Source: an uncultured bacterium
GTDB lineage: Bacteria > UBA8481
Direction: 5' to 3'
Assembly (NCBI GenBank): GCA_964637705.1
Contig: CAZWVM010000003.1
Location: 1 to 57,351 of the forward strand
Length of the DNA stretch: 57,351 bases
A program made the position numbers and the translations under genes. Of this stretch, positions 10,591 through 48,708 are shown piece by piece. The stretch's first letter is position 1; each line of letters begins with the position of its first letter. The notes under the pieces were generated by a model. It worked only from the letters and a program-made list of their open reading frames with translations. It was not told where the DNA came from and did not search any database.

Positions 10591-11798
10591 TTCCCGTCGC
10601 CGGTCGATCCGCCCCGGCGCCCCGCGATTCGTTCCAGGTGAAACCGAGCTCCTCCGGAGTGGAGGCAGGAGGGAGGCTGGTCGAGGGCGAGGATGTGCCC
10701 GAAGAGCCTTCTTGCCTCGACCACGTCGCCCTGTTGCTCGTGCAGCGAGGCCCGGTAGTAGTCGGCCCAGAGCATGGCGCGCTCCGGCGCCTCGATCCTC
10801 GAGTCGCTCCGCGCCGCTTCGTGCGCCAGCTCATGCAGCCGCGACATTTCCGCCTCGTCGCGATCCCGCCACGCGAAACGCATCAGGTCGCGGACGGCGT
10901 CCAGCCGCACGGGGACGCTCGCGGCCGATGACGCCACGGTGCGCAGGAACTCGCGGCCCCGGTCCAGGTCTCCCGTCCTGATCGCCAGGAGTCCCTTGAT
11001 CCAGGTCACGATCTCCCGAGAAACCCGGGGTTCCTCGATCCGCGCGTCGATCAACGACCGCAGGACGTCCGGGTCGGGATTCTCGTCGTTGCCGAGCCGG
11101 TAGGACTCACCCAGCCAGGAACATCCCATGCTCAGGAGGCGCCCGCTCCATTCCCGGTGAAACATCCGGAGCCGCGATACGCTCTTGGACCCGGGATGCA
11201 GGCGGAAGTCGGTCCATGTCTCCGGGATGATGACCATGCGCGACGAAGCCAGGAGCCTCGTGTAGAGCTCCTGGTCCATGCAGTAATTCAACTCGGGCGC
11301 CAGGCCGCCGCAGCGCCGGAAAGACTCGAGCGTGAACCATGTCGAGGGCTGAGAGAGGTAGTAGCGGAAATAGACCATGGCCGCGTCCGTGGGCATGGCC
11401 TGGAGCCCGCCCGTCACGCGTCCCTCGGCGTCGATGTAGCGCCCGTCGCCGGCGACAACGTCCGCGTCCGGGTGGCGCGCGAAGGCCGCCGCGATCCGCT
11501 CGAGGCAACCCGAGAGGAGTCGCTCGTCGGCGTTGATCCAGTTGGCGTAGCGCCCGGAGACCCGGCTGAATCCCTTGACCAGGGCCTCGCCCTGCCCGCG
11601 GTCCGCGCCGGGCAGAAGGGTCAGCCCCTCCTGAGAAGAGAGGTACTCGAGCGTGCCGTCGGTCGAACCGCCGTCGCAGACGATGTGCTCGAGGGACACG
11701 CCCTGCGCCCGGATGCTCTCAACGCACTCCCGTATGAACGGCATGCCGTTGAGGACCGGCGTGACGATGGAGAAGAGAGGACTCTCCCCGGCCGTCAT
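10587..11798 (-). CDS. GT2 glycosyltransferase with helical (TPR-like) C-terminus
   Basis: FSIVTPVLN, CDGGSTDGT, WINADE, QPSTWF and MDQEL motifs; ATGA overlap at 11795-11798. Confidence 0.87.
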   Translation of the reverse strand: MTAGESPLFSIVTPVLNGMPFIRECVESIRAQGVSLEHIVCDGGSTDGTLEYLSSQEGLTLLPGADRGQGEALVKGFSRVSGRYANWINADERLLSGCLERIAAAFARHPDADVVAGDGRYIDAEGRVTGGLQAMPTDAAMVYFRYYLSQPSTWFTLESFRRCGGLAPELNYCMDQELYTRLLASSRMVIIPETWTDFRLHPGSKSVSRLRMFHREWSGRLLSMGCSWLGESYRLGNDENPDPDVLRSLIDARIEEPRVSREIVTWIKGLLAIRTGDLDRGREFLRTVASSAASVPVRLDAVRDLMRFAWRDRDEAEMSRLHELAHEAARSDSRIEAPERAMLWADYYRASLHEQQGDVVEARRLFGHILALDQPPSCLHSGGARFHLERIAGRRGGSTGDGN

Positions 11799-12505
11799 GC
11801 CGCTCCCTCCGCCAGCACGCGCGGGAGCGATTCGGCGACGTAACAGGCGAAGAGGTTCTCGCCCACCGCATTCGGATGCCGGTCCGCCGGCGAAACCTGG
11901 ACGTCCCGTTCCTGGTACACCGAGAGACGGTCGTTGAACCCGAGCAGCACCCGCGTGCGCTGCCCGTTCAGCGTCGCCAGCCGCCGCTCGAAGTGGCGGC
12001 GCAACCCGTACAGCCCGATGTCCCAGAAGACGCAAACGTAGCGATGTCCTCCCGCCTCGACGGCTTCCGCGAAGTCCCCCAGCAGGGCGAGGTCCTCTTC
12101 GATCCCCTCGCGGTAGCTCTTCTCGCCGAAGAAGAGCGCGCGGTAGATCCTCTCGAACGGGCCGGCCAGGGACGGCATCATCCCGCGAACCCAGGCGAGA
12201 CGCTCGAGAAAGACGGAGAATTCCTCCAAGGCCGCCGGGAGGGAATCCTTCAGCCTCCAGCGGCGCAAGGCGCTCCAGTGCCGAACCGCGTCGGCATCGG
12301 GGTAGACGTGGATGACGAGCGTCGGCGGAGCGCCGTCGAGCGCGGCCCGGGCCGGGGGCAGGATCTGCCGGAGGCCGCCCCCCGGGAAGCCGAGCCGTTC
12401 GACGGCCGGCGCGGCGGGCAGGATCTCGCGAATCCGCTCGCCGATCCTTTTCGCCAGGGATTCCGTCGCGAAGGAATCTCCGATGAAGAGGACCCGCCCG
12501 TGCAT
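11795..12505 (-). CDS. SGNH/GDSL hydrolase-family protein
   Basis: LFIGDSF (block I) and DRHPN (block V DxH). Start at 12505 preferred; 12538 is an alternative. Confidence 0.75.
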   Translation of the reverse strand: MHGRVLFIGDSFATESLAKRIGERIREILPAAPAVERLGFPGGGLRQILPPARAALDGAPPTLVIHVYPDADAVRHWSALRRWRLKDSLPAALEEFSVFLERLAWVRGMMPSLAGPFERIYRALFFGEKSYREGIEEDLALLGDFAEAVEAGGHRYVCVFWDIGLYGLRRHFERRLATLNGQRTRVLLGFNDRLSVYQERDVQVSPADRHPNAVGENLFACYVAESLPRVLAEGAA

Positions 12506-12524
12506 GAAGGCCCCGCGGACCGGA

Positions 12525-12656
12525 TCAGTCGATGTCATAGACGAAATCCTTGGGCTGCTCGGCGATGCGGCCGCGCCGCATCAGGAACCGGAACGGGAGG
12601 AGGAGAAGGAGAACCATGAAGATCGTCGCGCGCAGGATCATCTCCTTAGAGACCAT
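12525..12656 (-). CDS. Small membrane protein (43 aa), SxtJ/SxtK-like by context
   Basis: Translated manually: MVSKEMILRATIFMVLLLLPFRFLMRRGRIAEQPKDFVYDID. One hydrophobic helix followed by a basic patch; lies between a carbamoyltransferase and an SGNH gene. Confidence 0.6.
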   Translation of the reverse strand: MVSKEMILRATIFMVLLLLLPFRFLMRRGRIAEQPKDFVYDID

Positions 12657-12825
12657 CTACAAAACCCCTTCGTCGCGAGACCGAGCGAGATGCCGCCCGG
12701 CGAGGCCGCAGGGGCAAAACGCTCGGAAACGCAGTCTTGTCCTGCGTTGAGAACGTTTTGCCCCGAGAACGAAGTCGGGCGGCGTCATAGCCGGTCGCAG
12801 CAGAAGGGGTTTTGCAGATGGTCTC
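12649..12825. mobile_element. MITE-like element, 177 bp, with 23-bp terminal inverted repeats and a 3-bp TTA direct repeat
   Basis: Left end GAGACCATCTACAAAACCCCTTC; right end (reverse complement) GAGACCATCTGCAAAACCCCTTC, one mismatch. TTA at 12646-12648 and 12826-12828. Nested IR GGGGCAAAACG at 12711-12721/12754-12764. No transposase. Confidence 0.85.
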
Positions 12826-14583
12826 TTAATCCTCATAGAGCACCGGATCCGCGGATCGGGCCGCCGGGTGATCCCGGTTGGCCGCCTTCTCGACGAGGAT
12901 GCGGCCCATGACCAGGGCGTCGATGTCGGTCTTCATCAGGCAGCGGAAGGCGTCGTGGGGCACGCAGACGATCGGCTCGCCCCTCACGTTGAAGGAGGTG
13001 TTGATGACGACCGGCACGCCGGTTCGATCGGCGAACGATCGGATCAGGGCATGGAAGAGCGGGTTGCTCTCTTTCGTCACCGCGTGGAGGCGCCCCGTGC
13101 CGTCGACGTGCGTCACCGCGGGAATCTCCGCCCGCTTCTCCTCCCGCACGGGATAGACCATCAGCATGTACTCGCAGGGCTCGGTGACGGCCCCGGGAAT
13201 CTCGAAGTAGTCCGCGACGCGTTCGGCGAGGATCGAGGGGGCGAAGGGCCGAAAAGCCTCGCGGTGCTTCACCTTCTCGTTCAGGATCTCCTTCATCTCG
13301 GCGCGCCGAGGGTCGGCGAGGATGGAGCGGTAGCCGAGCGACCGCGGCCCCCACTCCATGCCGCCCTGGAACCACCCGACCACCTCGCCCTCCGCCAGTC
13401 GTCGCGCCGCCTCGGACGCCGCCGCGGCGTCGTCCGGCAGCACCCGGTGCGCGATCCCTTCGGCGCGGCAGTACGCGGCGACCTGTTCGTCGGTGAAGGC
13501 GGGGCCGAGCGGGATGCGCATGCGGTGGCGGGGACAGGAACGATCGAGCCGGTGGTTCAGGGCGAGCGCCGCGCCGATGGCGCCCCCGTCGTCGCCGGGA
13601 GCCGGCGGGACGAAGAGATCCCGGAACGGCGTCGCAGAGAGGATCCGGGCGTTGGCGACGCTGTTCAACGCCACGCCGCCCGCGAAGCAGAGATGCGCGA
13701 GCCCGGTCATCTCGTGGGCGCCGCGCGCCACGTGCAGGACGGCCCGCTCCAGCGCGCGCTGGAGGGAACAGGCGAGGTTCTGGTGGTACTCCGTCACCGG
13801 ATCAGCGGCGCGACGCGGCGGGCCGAACAGGGAGATCCACCGGTCGCCGTGCATCCTGTCCTCGCGGAAGAAATCGAAGTAATCGAGATCCAGCGTGAAC
13901 GAGCCGTCGGGATGGAGGGCGAGGATCCGGTCGATGCGATCGGCCTCCGTGTCGCGTCCGTACGCGGAGAGCCCCATCACCTTGTATTCCGCGTTGTTGG
14001 GGCGGAACCCGAGGAACTGCGTGAAGGTCGAGTAGAGGAGGCCGAGGGAGTGGGGAAAGCGGATCTCGCGCAACAATGAGATGGAGTTCTCCCGCGCGCG
14101 GCCGACCGCCGTTGTCGCATACTCGCCCACGCCGTCGATCGTGAGGATCGCGGACTCCCCGAACGCGGACGGGTAGTAGGCGCTGGCCGCGTGGGCCAGG
14201 TGATGGCGGACGGTGTGAACCGGGGCGCGCAGTTCGAGGCGCCGCAGCTCGCGACGGATCGTCCTCTCGATCGGCAGGCGCGTCAGCATCCAGGCCGGCA
14301 GGTTCCCGATGAACTTTCGCCGTCCGCGCGGGTAGGCCTCGAGGTGCTCCTTCAGGATCCGCTCGAACTTGACGTAAGGCGTCTCGTAGAAGGCGACGGC
14401 GTCGATCCCGTCGGCGTCCAGCCCGGCCTGGTCGAGGGAACGGAGGACTGCCTGGACGGGAAAGCGTATGTCGTGCTTCAGGCGCGAGTAGCGCTCCTCC
14501 ATGGAGGCGGCCACGATGCGACCGTCCTCCACGATCGCCGCGGCCGCGTCGTGGTAATAGCAGGAGATGCCGAGGATCCTCAC
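12826..14583 (-). CDS. NodU/CmcH/TobZ-family O-carbamoyltransferase
   Basis: ILGISCYYHDAAAA, EERYSRLKH, HHLAHAASAY, DGVGE, YKVMGL, AGGVALN, EWGPRSLGYRS, FRPFAP, HVDGTGR and NTSFNVRGEP motifs. Confidence 0.95.
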   Translation of the reverse strand: MRILGISCYYHDAAAAIVEDGRIVAASMEERYSRLKHDIRFPVQAVLRSLDQAGLDADGIDAVAFYETPYVKFERILKEHLEAYPRGRRKFIGNLPAWMLTRLPIERTIRRELRRLELRAPVHTVRHHLAHAASAYYPSAFGESAILTIDGVGEYATTAVGRARENSISLLREIRFPHSLGLLYSTFTQFLGFRPNNAEYKVMGLSAYGRDTEADRIDRILALHPDGSFTLDLDYFDFFREDRMHGDRWISLFGPPRRAADPVTEYHQNLACSLQRALERAVLHVARGAHEMTGLAHLCFAGGVALNSVANARILSATPFRDLFVPPAPGDDGGAIGAALALNHRLDRSCPRHRMRIPLGPAFTDEQVAAYCRAEGIAHRVLPDDAAAASEAARRLAEGEVVGWFQGGMEWGPRSLGYRSILADPRRAEMKEILNEKVKHREAFRPFAPSILAERVADYFEIPGAVTEPCEYMLMVYPVREEKRAEIPAVTHVDGTGRLHAVTKESNPLFHALIRSFADRTGVPVVINTSFNVRGEPIVCVPHDAFRCLMKTDIDALVMGRILVEKAANRDHPAARSADPVLYED

Positions 14584-44680: not shown

Positions 44681-45696
44681 CCGTTTTCCTCGACGTCCCC
44701 GGCGCCGAGAATCTCTCCCGCGGCGACGTCCCTCGTCAATCGCCGGCCGACGAGACGATCCTCTTCGCCGGGAAGAAGCCCCGCCCGGGGGCGTATCCAC
44801 GTCAGGTCCGCGAGCCCGATCACGTCGCCGCGCCTGAGCGGCCGGGCGGTCGCGATGGAGCGGCGCAGGGCCGCGCGGTTTCCCTCCTCGCAGGGCTGGA
44901 TCCCCTTCTCGCCGCTTCCCAGGAGCCTCTCGGTCTCCCGCACGCGTTCCACCAGGCGGCGGAATTCCGCGGGATCGGCCGAGAGCTTGTGATCGCGGAA
45001 GGAGGAATAATCGTGATCCAGCGTGAAGTGCTTCTCCACGATGCGGGCGCCCGCGGCCACGGCCGCGACGGCCGCCTCGATCCCGAGGGTGTGATCCGAG
45101 TAGCCGATCGTCGCGCCGGGAAAACGCGCGCCGAGCGCGGCGATGTTCCCGAGGTGGACCTCCCCGATCGGGACCGGGTAGGCGGCGACACAGTGCAGGA
45201 GCGCCAGTCCCGCGGAGACGCCCGGCGGGCGAGACGAGCGAATGCACGCCACGGCACGATCGACTCCGGCCATGTCGGTGAGCCCCGTCGAAAGGATCAC
45301 GGGGCGGAAACCCGAAGCGATGCGCCGGATGAGCGGGTAGAAGTCGTTGTCACCCGAGGCGATCTTCACCGCGTCCGCGATCTCCTCCACGAGGGCCGCG
45401 CTCTCGAGGTCGAACGGCGTCGAGATGAAGAGAAGTCCCCGGGCGCGGGCCTGGTCCGACAGCCTTCGGAACTCGTCGGGGGAGAGCTGGAACGATTGCA
45501 GGCGGTGGAACCTCTCGGCGTCGGACGCGCTGACGTAGTGCTCAGCGCGGAACGTCTGGAACTTGACGGCGTCCGCCCCGGTCGTCGCGGCCTCCTCCAC
45601 CAACCTTGCCGCCGTCTCGAAACTCCCCTCGTGGTTGTTGCCGATCTCCGCGACGATGAGAACCCGGTTGTCCGTCTCGAGGGCGCCGACTTTCAT
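44677..45696 (-). CDS. neuB: NeuB/SpsE-family nonulosonic acid synthase with SAF domain
   Basis: IVAEIGNNHEG, DAVKFQ, STPFD, KIASGD, LHCVAAYP, GYSDHT, EKHFTLD and RRSI motifs. Product specificity (Neu/Leg/Pse) is not resolvable from sequence by eye. Confidence 0.92.
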   Translation of the reverse strand: MKVGALETDNRVLIVAEIGNNHEGSFETAARLVEEAATTGADAVKFQTFRAEHYVSASDAERFHRLQSFQLSPDEFRRLSDQARARGLLFISTPFDLESAALVEEIADAVKIASGDNDFYPLIRRIASGFRPVILSTGLTDMAGVDRAVACIRSSRPPGVSAGLALLHCVAAYPVPIGEVHLGNIAALGARFPGATIGYSDHTLGIEAAVAAVAAGARIVEKHFTLDHDYSSFRDHKLSADPAEFRRLVERVRETERLLGSGEKGIQPCEEGNRAALRRSIATARPLRRGDVIGLADLTWIRPRAGLLPGEEDRLVGRRLTRDVAAGEILGAGDVEENG

Positions 45697-46622
45697 CGGC
45701 CGTAGATGAGGGCGGCCGCTCCGCGCACGGTCGCGAAGGTGTCGTAGCGGCGGATCTCCCCGGTTTCCCCCTCGAACCGCCACTTCCGGATCCAGAGACA
45801 CCGATCCTTTGCGCAGGTGAGAAGCCCGTTCGCGCTCACCTCGTAGACCCGGCCCGGTTCTCCGAAGACGTTGCGCTTGGCCCGCCGCGACGCGAGCAGC
45901 CTGACGCGGCGGCCGTTGACGAAGCTGTGTGCGCCGGGATAGGGATCCGTCAATGCACGGATCCGGTTGTGGATCTCCTCGGCCGTCAGCTGGTCGAAGA
46001 GAACGAACCCGTCCTCGGGGAATCGCAGGGGATAGTAGCCGGCCCGGGCTTCGTCCTGGACGCGTTTCTCCAGGCGCCCATCCTTCATCCTCGCCAGCGT
46101 CTCGACGAGCATCGCCGGAAACTCACGGTTCGCGATCGCCTGCAGGTCCGCGATGGAATCATCCGGTCCGATCGGGAAGGTTCGATCGAGAAGGACGGGA
46201 CCGGAATCCACGCCCGCATCGACCTCGATGACCGAAAGCGTGAAGGAACTCCAACCGTGGATCAGGGCCCAGTTCATCGGGGAGGAGCCGCGGCACTCGG
46301 GAAGCTTCCCCGCGTGGGTGTTGATGCATCCCCGGGGGAAAAGCGCGATCGTTGAGGGCTCGAGGATCGGGCCGTACCCGGAGAGCACCATGAGATCGGC
46401 ACCTTGTCCCGCCAGGGCCCGGCACGATTCCTCCGCGTTGATGTCTGCGGGGGAAAGGACCGGGATCCCCTTAGCGAGCGCCGCGGCGGCAAAGGATCGA
46501 ACCGGGGGCGTCGCACCCGGGAAAGGGTGTGCCACGGCGGCGGCGACGTCGAAACCCGCATCGATCAGGGCCTCGAGACAGGCCGTTCCCCGTTCCTTGT
46601 TTCCCGCGACCAGGATCTTCAT
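45693..46622 (-). CDS. Formyltransferase (Fmt/ArnA-N-like)
   Basis: INTHAGKLPECRGSSP, VDSGP and IRALTDPYPGA motifs, with a C-terminal Fmt domain. Confidence 0.88.
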   Translation of the reverse strand: MKILVAGNKERGTACLEALIDAGFDVAAAVAHPFPGATPPVRSFAAAALAKGIPVLSPADINAEESCRALAGQGADLMVLSGYGPILEPSTIALFPRGCINTHAGKLPECRGSSPMNWALIHGWSSFTLSVIEVDAGVDSGPVLLDRTFPIGPDDSIADLQAIANREFPAMLVETLARMKDGRLEKRVQDEARAGYYPLRFPEDGFVLFDQLTAEEIHNRIRALTDPYPGAHSFVNGRRVRLLASRRAKRNVFGEPGRVYEVSANGLLTCAKDRCLWIRKWRFEGETGEIRRYDTFATVRGAAALIYGR

Positions 46623-46665
46623 GAACCGTCATTCTCGTCCGCCTGCCCTGATTCGTCAACACGGC

Positions 46666-46857
46666 CCCCGCGACAGGATGCATCCGTGGATCGTAGGTAA
46701 CGACATCCTGTGCCTCGCTCATTCTCATCGCGCCTCCTGCGCGATTCCGAGGCCTCGCCCGTCCCACCAGACCTCCGTGTCGTGGACCGGGCTCGGAATC
46801 CGCTCGGCACTAGAATGTCGTTACCTACGAATCGCGAACGCTCCCCGCGACAGGATG
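46666..46857. repeat. 15-bp direct repeat CCCCGCGACAGGATG flanking the IR element
   Basis: Identical copies at 46666-46680 and 46843-46857. The second copy is part of a hairpin with TCGCGGGG at 46859-46866. Confidence 0.75.
46691..46830. repeat. 140-bp element with perfect 16-bp terminal inverted repeats (MITE-like or invertible segment)
   Basis: TCGTAGGTAACGACAT at 46691-46706 and its exact reverse complement at 46815-46830; nested IR GATTCCGAG at 46743-46751/46792-46800. Confidence 0.8.
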
Positions 46858-46881
46858 ATCGCGGGGAACTAGAATCCCCCC

Positions 46882-48708
46882 ATGGCGCGCATCGCGGGCA
46901 TTCTCTCCGAAGAACCTCCCCTGACCGACGAACTCCGGTCCATGCTCGCCGCTGCCGCGCCCGGCGTCGAGGTGAAGTCGACCGACGGCCCGGGTCTTCT
47001 CATGGGATCCGCTGCAGGCAGCGTGACCCGCACCGCCGCCGGCATTTCGGTCGCTCTCGACGGAACCGTCTACAACCGGGCGGATTTCCCGCGCGCGGCC
47101 TCGGACGCTGAGCTCGTGGCGTTTCTCTACGAGAAGCACGGTCTCCTCGAAACCCTGCGCCGTCTCAACGGCGACTTCGCCCTTGCGCTCTTCGACGAGT
47201 CGTCCCGGACGCTCTGGATCGCCCGGGATCGCTTCGGCATCAAGCCGCTCTACTACCGCGACCGTCCCGGCCGTTTCCTCTTCGCCTCCCGCTGCGCCTC
47301 GCTCCTCGCTCTCCCCGAGGTACCTTCCGACGTCGACCGGGCGTTTGTTGCGCGATTCGCGGGTCTCCATTACCGCTGCATCGACAACGAGCCCGGTGCG
47401 TCTCCCTACGCCGCCATCGCTCAACTTCCCGCCGCGACCGCCCTCGAGGTCGTCCCGGGGAAGGAACCTCGGCTTCACGACTGGTGGACGCTCCGGGACG
47501 AGGGCGACTTCGTGAAGCCGGAGGAGGATCTCGCGGCTGAATACCGCGCGCTCCTCCTCGACGCCGTCCGGATCCGCCTGGAATCCGCGCCGCGCCGCGC
47601 CTTCACGCTCTCGGGCGGGATGGATTCCTCCTCCGTCCTCTCCTGCGCCGTCCATCTCTCCGGCCGGAAGGAACAGGCCTTCTCGACCGTTTACGAGGAC
47701 GCGACCTACGACGAATCCACGGACATCCGGAGCATCCTCGAGGCGGTGGTGGAGGAGTGGCGCCGCGTCCGGGTCGGAACGCCCGACGTCTTCTCCCTCG
47801 TCGACGAGATGGTGGCCGTTCATGACGAACCCGTCGCCACCGCCACCTGGCTCTCCCATTTCCTGCTCTGCCGCGCCGTCCGCGAGGCCGGCTTCACGGC
47901 CCTCTTCGGCGGCCTGGGCGGGGACGAGATCAACGCGGGCGAATACGAGCATTTCCTCTTCCACTTCGCCGACCTTCGCGCGAGCGGCCGCGGGGCGGAA
48001 CTGGAGCGAGAGACCGCGGGCTGGATCCGCCACCACGACCACCCGGTCTTCAGGAAAAGCGCCGCTGTCCGCGACGAGGCCCTCGCCCGCCTCGTCGATC
48101 TCACCCGCCCCGGAATCTGCCGACCCGACGACGCGCGCCTCGCGCGATACCGCGACGCCGTCGCCCGCGACTACTTCGACCTCGCATCCTTCGTGCCCCG
48201 CATGGATCACCCCTTCGCCAGCTACCTCAAGAACCGCACCTGGCAGGATTTGAGCCGCGAGACGATTCCATGCTGTCTCAGGGGCGAGGACCGGCAGGCG
48301 GAAGCTGCGGGAATCGAGAACCGCCTTCCCTTCTTCGACCATCGGCTGGCCGAGTTCATGTTCCGGGTTCCGGGAACCATGAAATTCCGTGACGGCGTCA
48401 GCAAGATCCTCCTGAGAAGGGCGATGAGGGAGATCGTGCCCGAGGAAACGCGGACACGTGTGAAGAAGACGGGATGGAACGCCCCCGCTCACGTCTGGTT
48501 CTCGGGTAACAGGCTCGCGCGGCTCCGTGACATCGTCGCCTCACCCGTTCTGGACGGCCTCTACGACAGGAAACGTGTCACGGCTCTCCTCGCGGATCAC
48601 GAGGCGATCGTCACCTCGGGGAGGCCCGCGGAAAATCACATGATGTTTTTCTGGCAACTGGTGAATCTCGAAGCGTGGCTGAGGCATCACGGTCTTCGCG
48701 GCCGCTGA
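46882..48708 (+). CDS. AsnB-like ATP-dependent amide synthetase lacking the N-terminal Cys
   Basis: Starts MARIAG instead of MCGIAG; keeps RDRFGIKPL, SGGMDSS, GLGGDE, ENRLPFFD and KKTGW. Confidence 0.88.
   Translation: MARIAGILSEEPPLTDELRSMLAAAAPGVEVKSTDGPGLLMGSAAGSVTRTAAGISVALDGTVYNRADFPRAASDAELVAFLYEKHGLLETLRRLNGDFALALFDESSRTLWIARDRFGIKPLYYRDRPGRFLFASRCASLLALPEVPSDVDRAFVARFAGLHYRCIDNEPGASPYAAIAQLPAATALEVVPGKEPRLHDWWTLRDEGDFVKPEEDLAAEYRALLLDAVRIRLESAPRRAFTLSGGMDSSSVLSCAVHLSGRKEQAFSTVYEDATYDESTDIRSILEAVVEEWRRVRVGTPDVFSLVDEMVAVHDEPVATATWLSHFLLCRAVREAGFTALFGGLGGDEINAGEYEHFLFHFADLRASGRGAELERETAGWIRHHDHPVFRKSAAVRDEALARLVDLTRPGICRPDDARLARYRDAVARDYFDLASFVPRMDHPFASYLKNRTWQDLSRETIPCCLRGEDRQAEAAGIENRLPFFDHRLAEFMFRVPGTMKFRDGVSKILLRRAMREIVPEETRTRVKKTGWNAPAHVWFSGNRLARLRDIVASPVLDGLYDRKRVTALLADHEAIVTSGRPAENHMMFFWQLVNLEAWLRHHGLRGR

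Follow-up and report, generated by a model that had tools for sequence, protein, structure and literature searches.

A MITE at the stop codon of a carbamoyltransferase gene and the frame of the small gene that follows it

What becomes of two neighbouring genes when a mobile element lands on the stop codon that ends the first of them? The question is raised by a 57,351-nt stretch of DNA from an uncultured bacterium (the window, positions 1-57351, with coordinates counted from its first letter), in which a MITE (miniature inverted-repeat transposable element), bounded by terminal inverted repeats (TIRs), separates the stop codon of a carbamoyltransferase gene from the body of a 43-codon gene. 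All genes around the insertion site lie on the minus strand. We found that neither frame is destroyed at this junction: the target-site duplication remakes the stop codon of the first gene and the TIR offers a start codon, in frame and at identical length, to the second. The features concerned, in the order of the minus strand and with the evidence for each in brackets, are:

12826-14583, minus strand: carbamoyltransferase gene, 585 amino acids (aa), GTG start, ending ...LYED-TAA (Pfam; the product equals P0002)
12826-12828, minus strand: copy 1 of the target-site duplication, which is the carbamoyltransferase stop codon (TAA on the minus strand)
12649-12825, strand not assigned: palindromic non-autonomous TIR element (MITE), 177 bp, 62% GC (inverted repeats, hairpin z-score -9.5, other copies with the same boundaries)
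12803-12825, strand not assigned: TIR on the 5′ side of the mRNA, GAGACCATCTGCAAAACCCCTTC on the minus strand (inverted-repeat search)
12711-12764, strand not assigned: core hairpin with a 14-bp stem (12711-12724 and 12751-12764) and an inner stem-loop (inverted repeat I3)
12649-12671, strand not assigned: TIR on the 3′ side of the mRNA, GAAGGGGTTTTGTAGATGGTCTC on the minus strand (carries a Shine-Dalgarno (SD)-like motif, TAG and ATG)
12646-12648, minus strand: copy 2 of the target-site duplication, now ..T AA. within codons Ser3/Lys4 of the small gene (TAA on the minus strand)
12525-12656, minus strand: small gene, read at present as 43 aa, MVSKEMILRATIFMVLLLLLPFRFLMRRGRIAEQPKDFVYDID; its product has a single hydrophobic segment and ends in the conserved KDFVYDID (homologues P0122 and P0123; syntenic small genes in five relatives)
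11795-12538, minus strand: downstream gene, 247 aa, MTSTDP...LFIGDSFA... (no Pfam hit; 14-nt overlap with the small gene)

On the minus strand the carbamoyltransferase gene ends ...CTC TAT GAG GAT TAA (stop 12828-12826) and is followed by the element (12825-12649), a second TAA (12648-12646) and then GGAG ATG ATC CTG.... The two TIRs, 23 nt each, are identical at 22 of 23 positions, the TTA duplication flanks the element at 12646-12648 and 12826-12828, and the window contains the 20-nt end motif exactly two times, compared with never in 100 shuffles. Removal of the element and one TTA in silico gave ATGAGGATTAAGGAGATG, that is ATG AGG ATT AAG GAG ATG ATC CTG, within the inferred empty-site sequence ...TATGAGGATTAAGGAGATGATC..., and restored an open reading frame (ORF) of 43 codons encoding MRIKEMILRATIF...DID (MRIKEMIL...). 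With the element in place the sequence is ATGGTCTCTAAGGAGATG, read as ATG GTC TCT AAG GAG ATG..., and the product MVSKEMIL... also has 43 codons in the same frame. The element interrupts the small gene behind ATG AGG AT, and the TIR contributes ATG GTC TC, which joins the second TAA in frame (TCT AAG). Both the old ATG (12836-12834) and the TIR ATG (12656-12654) stand 8 nt before their own copy of TAA. An initial annotation, made from the letters alone, had described a TIR element with a 3-bp duplication that splits a gene while keeping its frame and length; the repeats, the TTA on both sides, the reading of both alleles and the copies with other flanks described below all bear this out. As the duplication rebuilds TAA beside the carbamoyltransferase gene, its protein is unchanged. 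Two separately assembled runs, X1 and X2, span both junctions with the element present, so that an assembly artefact is excluded; these runs and the window hold one copy of the element only, and no MITE-free joint was detected in any run holding the locus.

By its size, its TIRs, a target-site duplication with a consistent empty site and its occurrence at multiple sites, the element is a genuine mobile MITE without coding capacity. Its ORFs are incidental read-through frames only, and no transposase is encoded in it or anywhere in the 57-kb window. Folding predictions gave a single long hairpin from either strand (-135.9 kcal/mol and z -9.5 for the mRNA strand), with a TIR-TIR stem of 23 bp and, inside the core hairpin, an inner stem formed by 12728-12734 and 12742-12748. 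No promoter-like or intrinsic-terminator-like site was predicted in or near the element, and the ideas that it acts as an outward promoter or as a Rho-independent terminator were therefore dropped. There was no Rfam match in the region or in the whole window, and no tRNA in the window.

The account that we lean towards, as a whole, is a fortuitous insertion that was tolerated, with a TIR start that is possibly reached by termination and reinitiation. A 177-bp non-autonomous TIR transposon with 23-bp ends and a 3-bp duplication inserted at the TAA stop of the carbamoyltransferase gene, a target lying within a putative 11-nt overlap of this gene and a conserved 43-codon gene. The small gene would have lost its first 2 2/3 codons, and an ATG 8 nt inside the TIR would reopen its frame, turning MRIKE into MVSKE at the same length. 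We infer that the insertion is a lucky survivor of selection rather than a demonstrated adaptation of the element.

The empty site could be compared with that of MITE-free organisms. Contigs of seven distant relatives keep, in their gene calls, the triad of a carbamoyltransferase and two proteins of 42-43 and 238-257 aa, and in these calls the small gene overlaps the carbamoyltransferase end by 8 nt and the 238-257-aa gene (MTST...FxGDSFA) by 14 nt. The latter overlap, 12525-12538 in the window, has the identical length in all relatives. At the junctions of five of them the DNA was read directly; their syntenic small genes are:

L004, 3189-3320
L005, 2352-2480
L006, 2293-2421
L009, 143-271
L017, 2190-2318

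When aligned from the stop codon, the distance between stop and small-gene body was equal in the empty site and in these five relatives, which supports the inferred empty site and the boundaries of the element. For instance, TAA followed by 10 nt and CTGCGCGC is found in both the empty site and L005, and the stop-anchored alignment runs without gaps downstream (TAA GGAGATGATC CTGCGCGCG in the window, TAA AGAATTCTTC CTGCGCGCC in L005). Judged by this homology to AAA GAA or AAA GAG of the relatives, AAG GAG (Lys-Glu) is native coding sequence. The small protein itself had no Pfam or NCBIfam hit, a word-indexed search found only the query and an exact-sequence look-up returned nothing; an exhaustive HMMER search, however, retrieved the 42-aa proteins P0122 and P0123 (E 1e-5 and 2e-4). 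Alignment A1 of six small proteins contains 11 invariant columns, including M1, F13, P21, G29 and KDFVYD.D, and the C-terminus of the family is KDFVYD[IL]D. The conservation of sequence and position indicates that the split ORF is a genuine gene, as the initial annotation had taken it to be. We are highly confident of both the anatomy of the insertion and the authenticity of the small gene.

These data uncover a conserved, unannotated family of 42-43 aa that, as far as gene order tells, always has a carbamoyltransferase on one side and, on the other, a protein of 238-257 aa whose N-terminal part carries a GDSF motif, a tight coupling within glycan clusters. The protein has a single hydrophobic segment and is probably membrane-inserted. 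It takes the same position as DUF5989 (PF19451), a hydrophobic protein of 52-60 aa encoded directly downstream of more distant carbamoyltransferases (L008, L010), but the C-terminal motif of the latter is APF[IV]Y[TA]LF instead of KDFVYDID. Homology with DUF5989 was rejected, as none of the six members matched a Pfam profile even at E values as high as 10 and hhalign gave a probability of 0.9%. The upstream gene matched Carbam_trans_N (E ~1e-74 to 6e-74) and Carbam_trans_C (E ~1e-72 to 1e-71) in Pfam; its NodU equivalog score was 156 against a cut-off of 1000 bits, so it is assigned to the superfamily only, and its best homologues share only 49-55% identity.

Where did the small gene start before the insertion? 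In the five relatives with DNA its ATG lies 5 nt before the carbamoyltransferase stop (CGATGARTAR, an 8-nt overlap), with GAGGA as SD 3-5 nt upstream of it. The corresponding triplet in the window is AGG, and an ATG is found one codon further upstream (TATGAGG). The start had therefore already moved, and a one-codon migration that would give MRIKE... is the simplest reading. The initial annotation had likewise put the start inside the carbamoyltransferase end and expected MRIKEM. As every relative with DNA begins its small gene within the final codons of the carbamoyltransferase gene, placing the native start upstream of TAA is the more parsimonious choice. We took the gapless alignment of stop codons and small-gene bodies in the window and the relatives as favouring it too, and a basic residue (mostly Lys or Arg) is encoded across the stop codon in five of the six family members. 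A native start upstream of TAA is thus fairly probable, as judged from these comparisons. L005 also has an in-frame ATG in its Tyr-Glu codons (TATGAGGAG, ~2335-2359), upstream of the annotated start and at the position of the old ATG of the window; the position of the start codon within the carbamoyltransferase/small-gene overlap seems to be evolutionarily fluid.

With the element in place, the following signals bear on translation of the small gene:

12834-12836, minus strand: old ATG, in the carbamoyltransferase Tyr-Glu codons; inferred start of the small gene before insertion, now the start of the read-through ORF (comparison with relatives)
12657-12836, minus strand: 59-codon ORF that opens at the old ATG, crosses the entire element (MRIKRPSAKPLL...DEGVL), shares the frame of the small gene and ends at TAG 12659-12657 (ORF listing, translation)
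12665-12671, minus strand: SD-like GAAGGGG in the TIR, 7-8 nt upstream of the TIR ATG (anti-SD duplex -7.4 kcal/mol, spacing 7)
12654-12656, minus strand: TIR ATG, the proposed replacement start, directly after TAG 12659-12657 (UAGAUG) (ORF reading)
12639-12647, minus strand: AAGGAG (Lys-Glu codons, SD-like) abutting the internal ATG 12641-12639, a rival start (duplex -7.9 kcal/mol, spacing 0)

The -7.4 kcal/mol of GAAGGGG, obtained with a generic anti-SD, compares with -5.9 to -8.9 kcal/mol for the sites of the relatives. The stable mRNA hairpin of the whole element would bury both the TIR ATG and GAAGGGG, so that initiation there most likely requires ribosomes that come from upstream. The element and its duplication together measure 180 nt, exactly 60 codons, and the old ATG, which still overlaps the carbamoyltransferase stop, opens a 59-codon frame that ends at the UAG abutting the TIR AUG. 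A ribosome that started at the old ATG would melt the hairpin and could then terminate and reinitiate at the TIR AUG; the UAGAUG arrangement, a classic geometry for reinitiation, allows such a relay. Were this mechanism true, it would provide a testable model of how hairpin-forming MITEs avoid polarity in operons. That the TIR ATG is the start used now is a tentative call to which we give not quite even weight.

Several points weigh against this call. In the predicted mRNA fold the TIR ATG and GAAGGGG lie inside the TIR-TIR stem with P(unpaired) 0.00, versus 0.72 for the mostly accessible internal ATG 12641. In the empty site GAGGA, the SD motif of the relatives, stands 8 nt upstream of that internal ATG, and the SD of the old ATG is weak (-5.0 kcal/mol). 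Once the TIR contains an ATG, it matches the frame by chance in one case out of three, and 39% of core shuffles also leave a frame open across the element, so that the geometry of the rescue is statistically unremarkable; without the one position at which the two TIRs differ, there would be no TAG next to the TIR ATG. None of the RNA runs searched for the locus holds it, and the databases contain no close MITE-free relative (best carbamoyltransferase match, 55% identity). The ORF may have stayed intact just because the insertion is recent, the gene being by now poorly expressed. One way to read these points is that translation of the small gene began at the internal ATG 12641-12639 in the empty site and still does, the element sitting in a short leader and the TIR ATG and the equal length being coincidences without function. 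The GAGGA of the empty site and the accessibility of AUG 12641 would fit, as would the AGG at the start codon of the relatives, which implies that the start of the window moved somewhere. However, such a product would have 38 aa and lack the 4-5 N-terminal residues found in all six members, including the basic position kept in five of them; no relative has an ATG at the equivalent position; and after the insertion the sole SD, AAGGAG, abuts this ATG with zero spacing. We consider an internal start unlikely, though worth keeping in view. Slightly less likely again is that the small gene has been functionally switched off or much weakened by the insertion, with its start buried, its SD gone and its coupling broken; its ORF would look intact because the event is recent and the gene dispensable in this lineage. 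The hairpin of -136 kcal/mol sequesters the new start, the TIRs still identical at 22 of 23 positions and the perfect duplication suggest a young insertion, and the element occupies this locus in one genome lineage only. Nevertheless, the ORF keeps every invariant residue of the family, and the 247-aa gene, whose translation probably depends on ribosomes crossing the small gene, overlaps its end by 14 nt here and in all relatives.

A broader proposal, which takes in the general claim of the initial annotation, is that the TIR is an evolved outward translation start (GAAGGGG, 7-8 nt, ATG) which, together with targeting of TAA, lets overlapping genes systematically tolerate insertions at their stop codons. 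Outward GAAGGGG-N8-ATG is present in both TIRs, the duplication is TAA/TTA here, TAA in the X10 copy and TTA in the X7 copy, and in three of three readable cases the flank after WAA begins with GG (TAAGGAG, AAAGGAG, TAAGGCT), as in a stop-plus-SD junction. Overlaps of 8, 11 and 14 nt represent a common phase of long overlaps, which the TIR frame (T of TAA as third base) would fit. But only about five flanks of 30 nt or less were recovered from other copies; the opposite end of the same copy reads ATG GTC TCT TAA, the diverged X7 copy reads ATG GGC GCT TAG, and TIR sequence is constrained primarily by the transposase. Rescue would also be limited to overlaps whose length leaves a remainder of 2 on division by 3, the TIR start is buried in the element's own hairpin, and genes that follow a TAA mostly retain a start of their own, so that there is nothing to rescue. 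A genome with 67% GC, the value for the window and the genome, concentrates A/T-only triplets at stop codons and ribosome-binding sites, so that TAA targeting alone would explain such sites, and because of survivorship the tolerated insertion is the one that is seen. We therefore judge the general proposal quite improbable. We attach the same low credence to a still more elaborate scheme, a translated relay MITE that would target WAA/GG junctions (stop codon, then SD), remake the stop by duplication, have a length that is a multiple of three with an open frame in which ribosomes cross and melt the hairpin, and preserve operon translation through an outward SD-like motif and a UAGAUG hand-over in each TIR.

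Returning to the reading of a tolerated insertion with a TIR-supplied start, we compared it with known elements. Correia elements of Neisseria, whose duplication is TA, form hairpins that share a transcript with adjacent genes and are cleaved by RNase III; by analogy, RNase III could cut the 23-bp TIR-TIR stem here. Like the present element, Correia and the Chunjie MITE of Geobacter, which sits inside an operon, are palindromic MITEs that overlap or adjoin protein genes and form long RNA hairpins. Chunjie is similar in length and stability (178-235 bp, about -98 to -130 kcal/mol), and several copies overlap protein genes, but it makes a 9-bp duplication, and both families are unrelated in sequence; the secondary account available of these two families does not report start-codon replacement. 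The initial annotation had suggested that a start supplied by the TIR could be a general, undescribed property of this element family, but the principle has been described before: in three insertions of MITEAba12 in Acinetobacter, the outward TIR nucleotides encode the first four residues (MQQS) of the adjacent coding sequence (Adams and Brown 2019, PMC6382973). Both are short non-autonomous TIR elements with an outward TIR ATG in frame with the host coding sequence (MVS.. here). MITEAba12, though, has 113 bp, a 9-bp AT-rich duplication, weak secondary structure, a parent (ISAba12) and an outward promoter, whereas the present element has 177 bp, a 3-bp duplication and a very stable hairpin, with no parent or promoter found, and would stand in for an earlier start within a gene overlap, with the length unchanged. 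Fusions of repeats with ORFs at 5′ and 3′ gene ends have been reviewed (Delihas 2011, PMC3184786). The REP2 repeats of Neisseria and IR repeats of Borrelia covered there are 5′ regulatory cassettes and not insertions in an overlapping stop-start junction, and REP2 has a promoter and no TIRs. A mobile-element end that supplies the 5′ end of a host ORF is therefore a known phenomenon, and what is new is the MITE family itself. What is unusual here is the overlapping stop-start junction as target and the retention of both frames at identical length, which makes the locus a clean natural case of an insertion at such a junction that destroys neither frame. At insertions of this kind, gene callers will report a chimeric N-terminus (here MVSKE).

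Other copies were found by aligning public metagenome contigs with the element. Related copies are present in soil, groundwater and sediment metagenomes of other studies (runs X3-X10), in contigs that match the element and diverge at or within its boundaries into unrelated flanks; X9 alone has 27 matching contigs, and a renewed alignment of this run by itself gave no further flanks. Copies with ends in X5, X6, X9 and X10 stop at 12648 or 12825/12826. With a slash marking the joint, the X6 copy ends ...GGCCAA/A-GAGACC and GGTCTC/AAAGGAGAAGG, the X10 copy GGTCTCT/AAGGCTAAG and the diverged X7 copy ...GTAGATGGGCGC/TTAGCATG. The duplications of the window (TTA), X10 (TAA) and X7 (TTA) fit a 3-bp TNA, and that of X6 is apparently AAA, as far as these few copies tell. 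The flanks after WAA in the three readable cases are TAA/GGAGAT in the window, AAA/GGAGAA in X6 and TAA/GGCTAA in X10, and on these three flanks the element may have a target preference for WAAGG sites of the stop-plus-SD type.

PIF/Harbinger and IS1031-type duplications are typically TTA/TAA (TNA), and the terminal repeats of such elements are commonly short and of the GAG....CAAAA type. PIF/Harbinger elements are reported to make a 3-bp duplication (PMC2213677). By analogy, the TTA/TAA duplication suggests an IS5/IS1031- or PIF/Harbinger-like parent. In contrast to the IS5 (IS1031-type) and PIF-Harbinger-Tourist groups, no transposase or parent insertion sequence (IS) was found here, and the X6 copy is apparently flanked by AAA. 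Taking the element as IS630-type, with TA duplicated and one end asymmetric, yields the same empty site and was judged less likely because of the AAA flank of X6, and an IS200/IS605-type palindromic element was rejected given the perfect terminal repeats and the duplication. An autonomous parent IS with the same TIRs was found neither in the window nor by exact-TIR scans of genome, metagenome and viral contig collections, which returned only isolated chance 18-20-mers with no wider similarity. No match was obtained with the core-hairpin pattern in viral contigs or by BLAST of the element against plasmids, and nothing scored when its concatenated six-frame translation was compared with a protein database.

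In other metagenomes the core of the element (12701-12780) was much more abundant and better conserved than the TIRs. Word depth in X9 was ~110-166 over the core versus 8-10 at the TIRs, and X4 matches window 12703-12778 at 75 of 76 positions with different arms, so that the undescribed MITE family uncovered here has a core hairpin more conserved than its ends. The core variants seen in X9 are without exception transitions, and they affect either side of the predicted pairs 12723/12752, 12728/12748 and 12732/12744, a pattern that looks compensatory and may be so if the paired changes occur together on one contig.

The contig around the insertion site is, over its whole length, a cluster for biosynthesis of glycan or cell-surface polysaccharide. 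The window encodes GT1, GT2 and GT4 glycosyltransferases, many S-adenosylmethionine (SAM) methyltransferases and three radical SAM enzymes, of which two carry a B12-binding domain and the third a SPASM domain, together with a DegT aminotransferase, a UDP-glucose dehydrogenase, a myo-inositol-1-phosphate synthase, two cytidylyltransferases, two asparagine synthases and one polysaccharide deacetylase. Run X3, a soil metagenome of another study, holds a 181-nt contig identical to window 12300-12390 (91 nt), a match indicating that the sample contains the same or a near-identical organism at low depth; this contig stops short of the junction and is therefore uninformative on a MITE-free allele. 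Finally, the intergenic region 46667-46880, between two divergent genes, one for a formyltransferase (45693-46628, minus strand) and one for an asparagine-synthase-like protein (46873-48708, plus strand), contains a 30-nt inverted repeat (46680-46709 and 46812-46841, 80% complementary), a direct repeat CCCGCGACAGGATG at ~46667 and 46845, and two copies of CTAGAAT, repeats that may represent an operator or another small repeat element.

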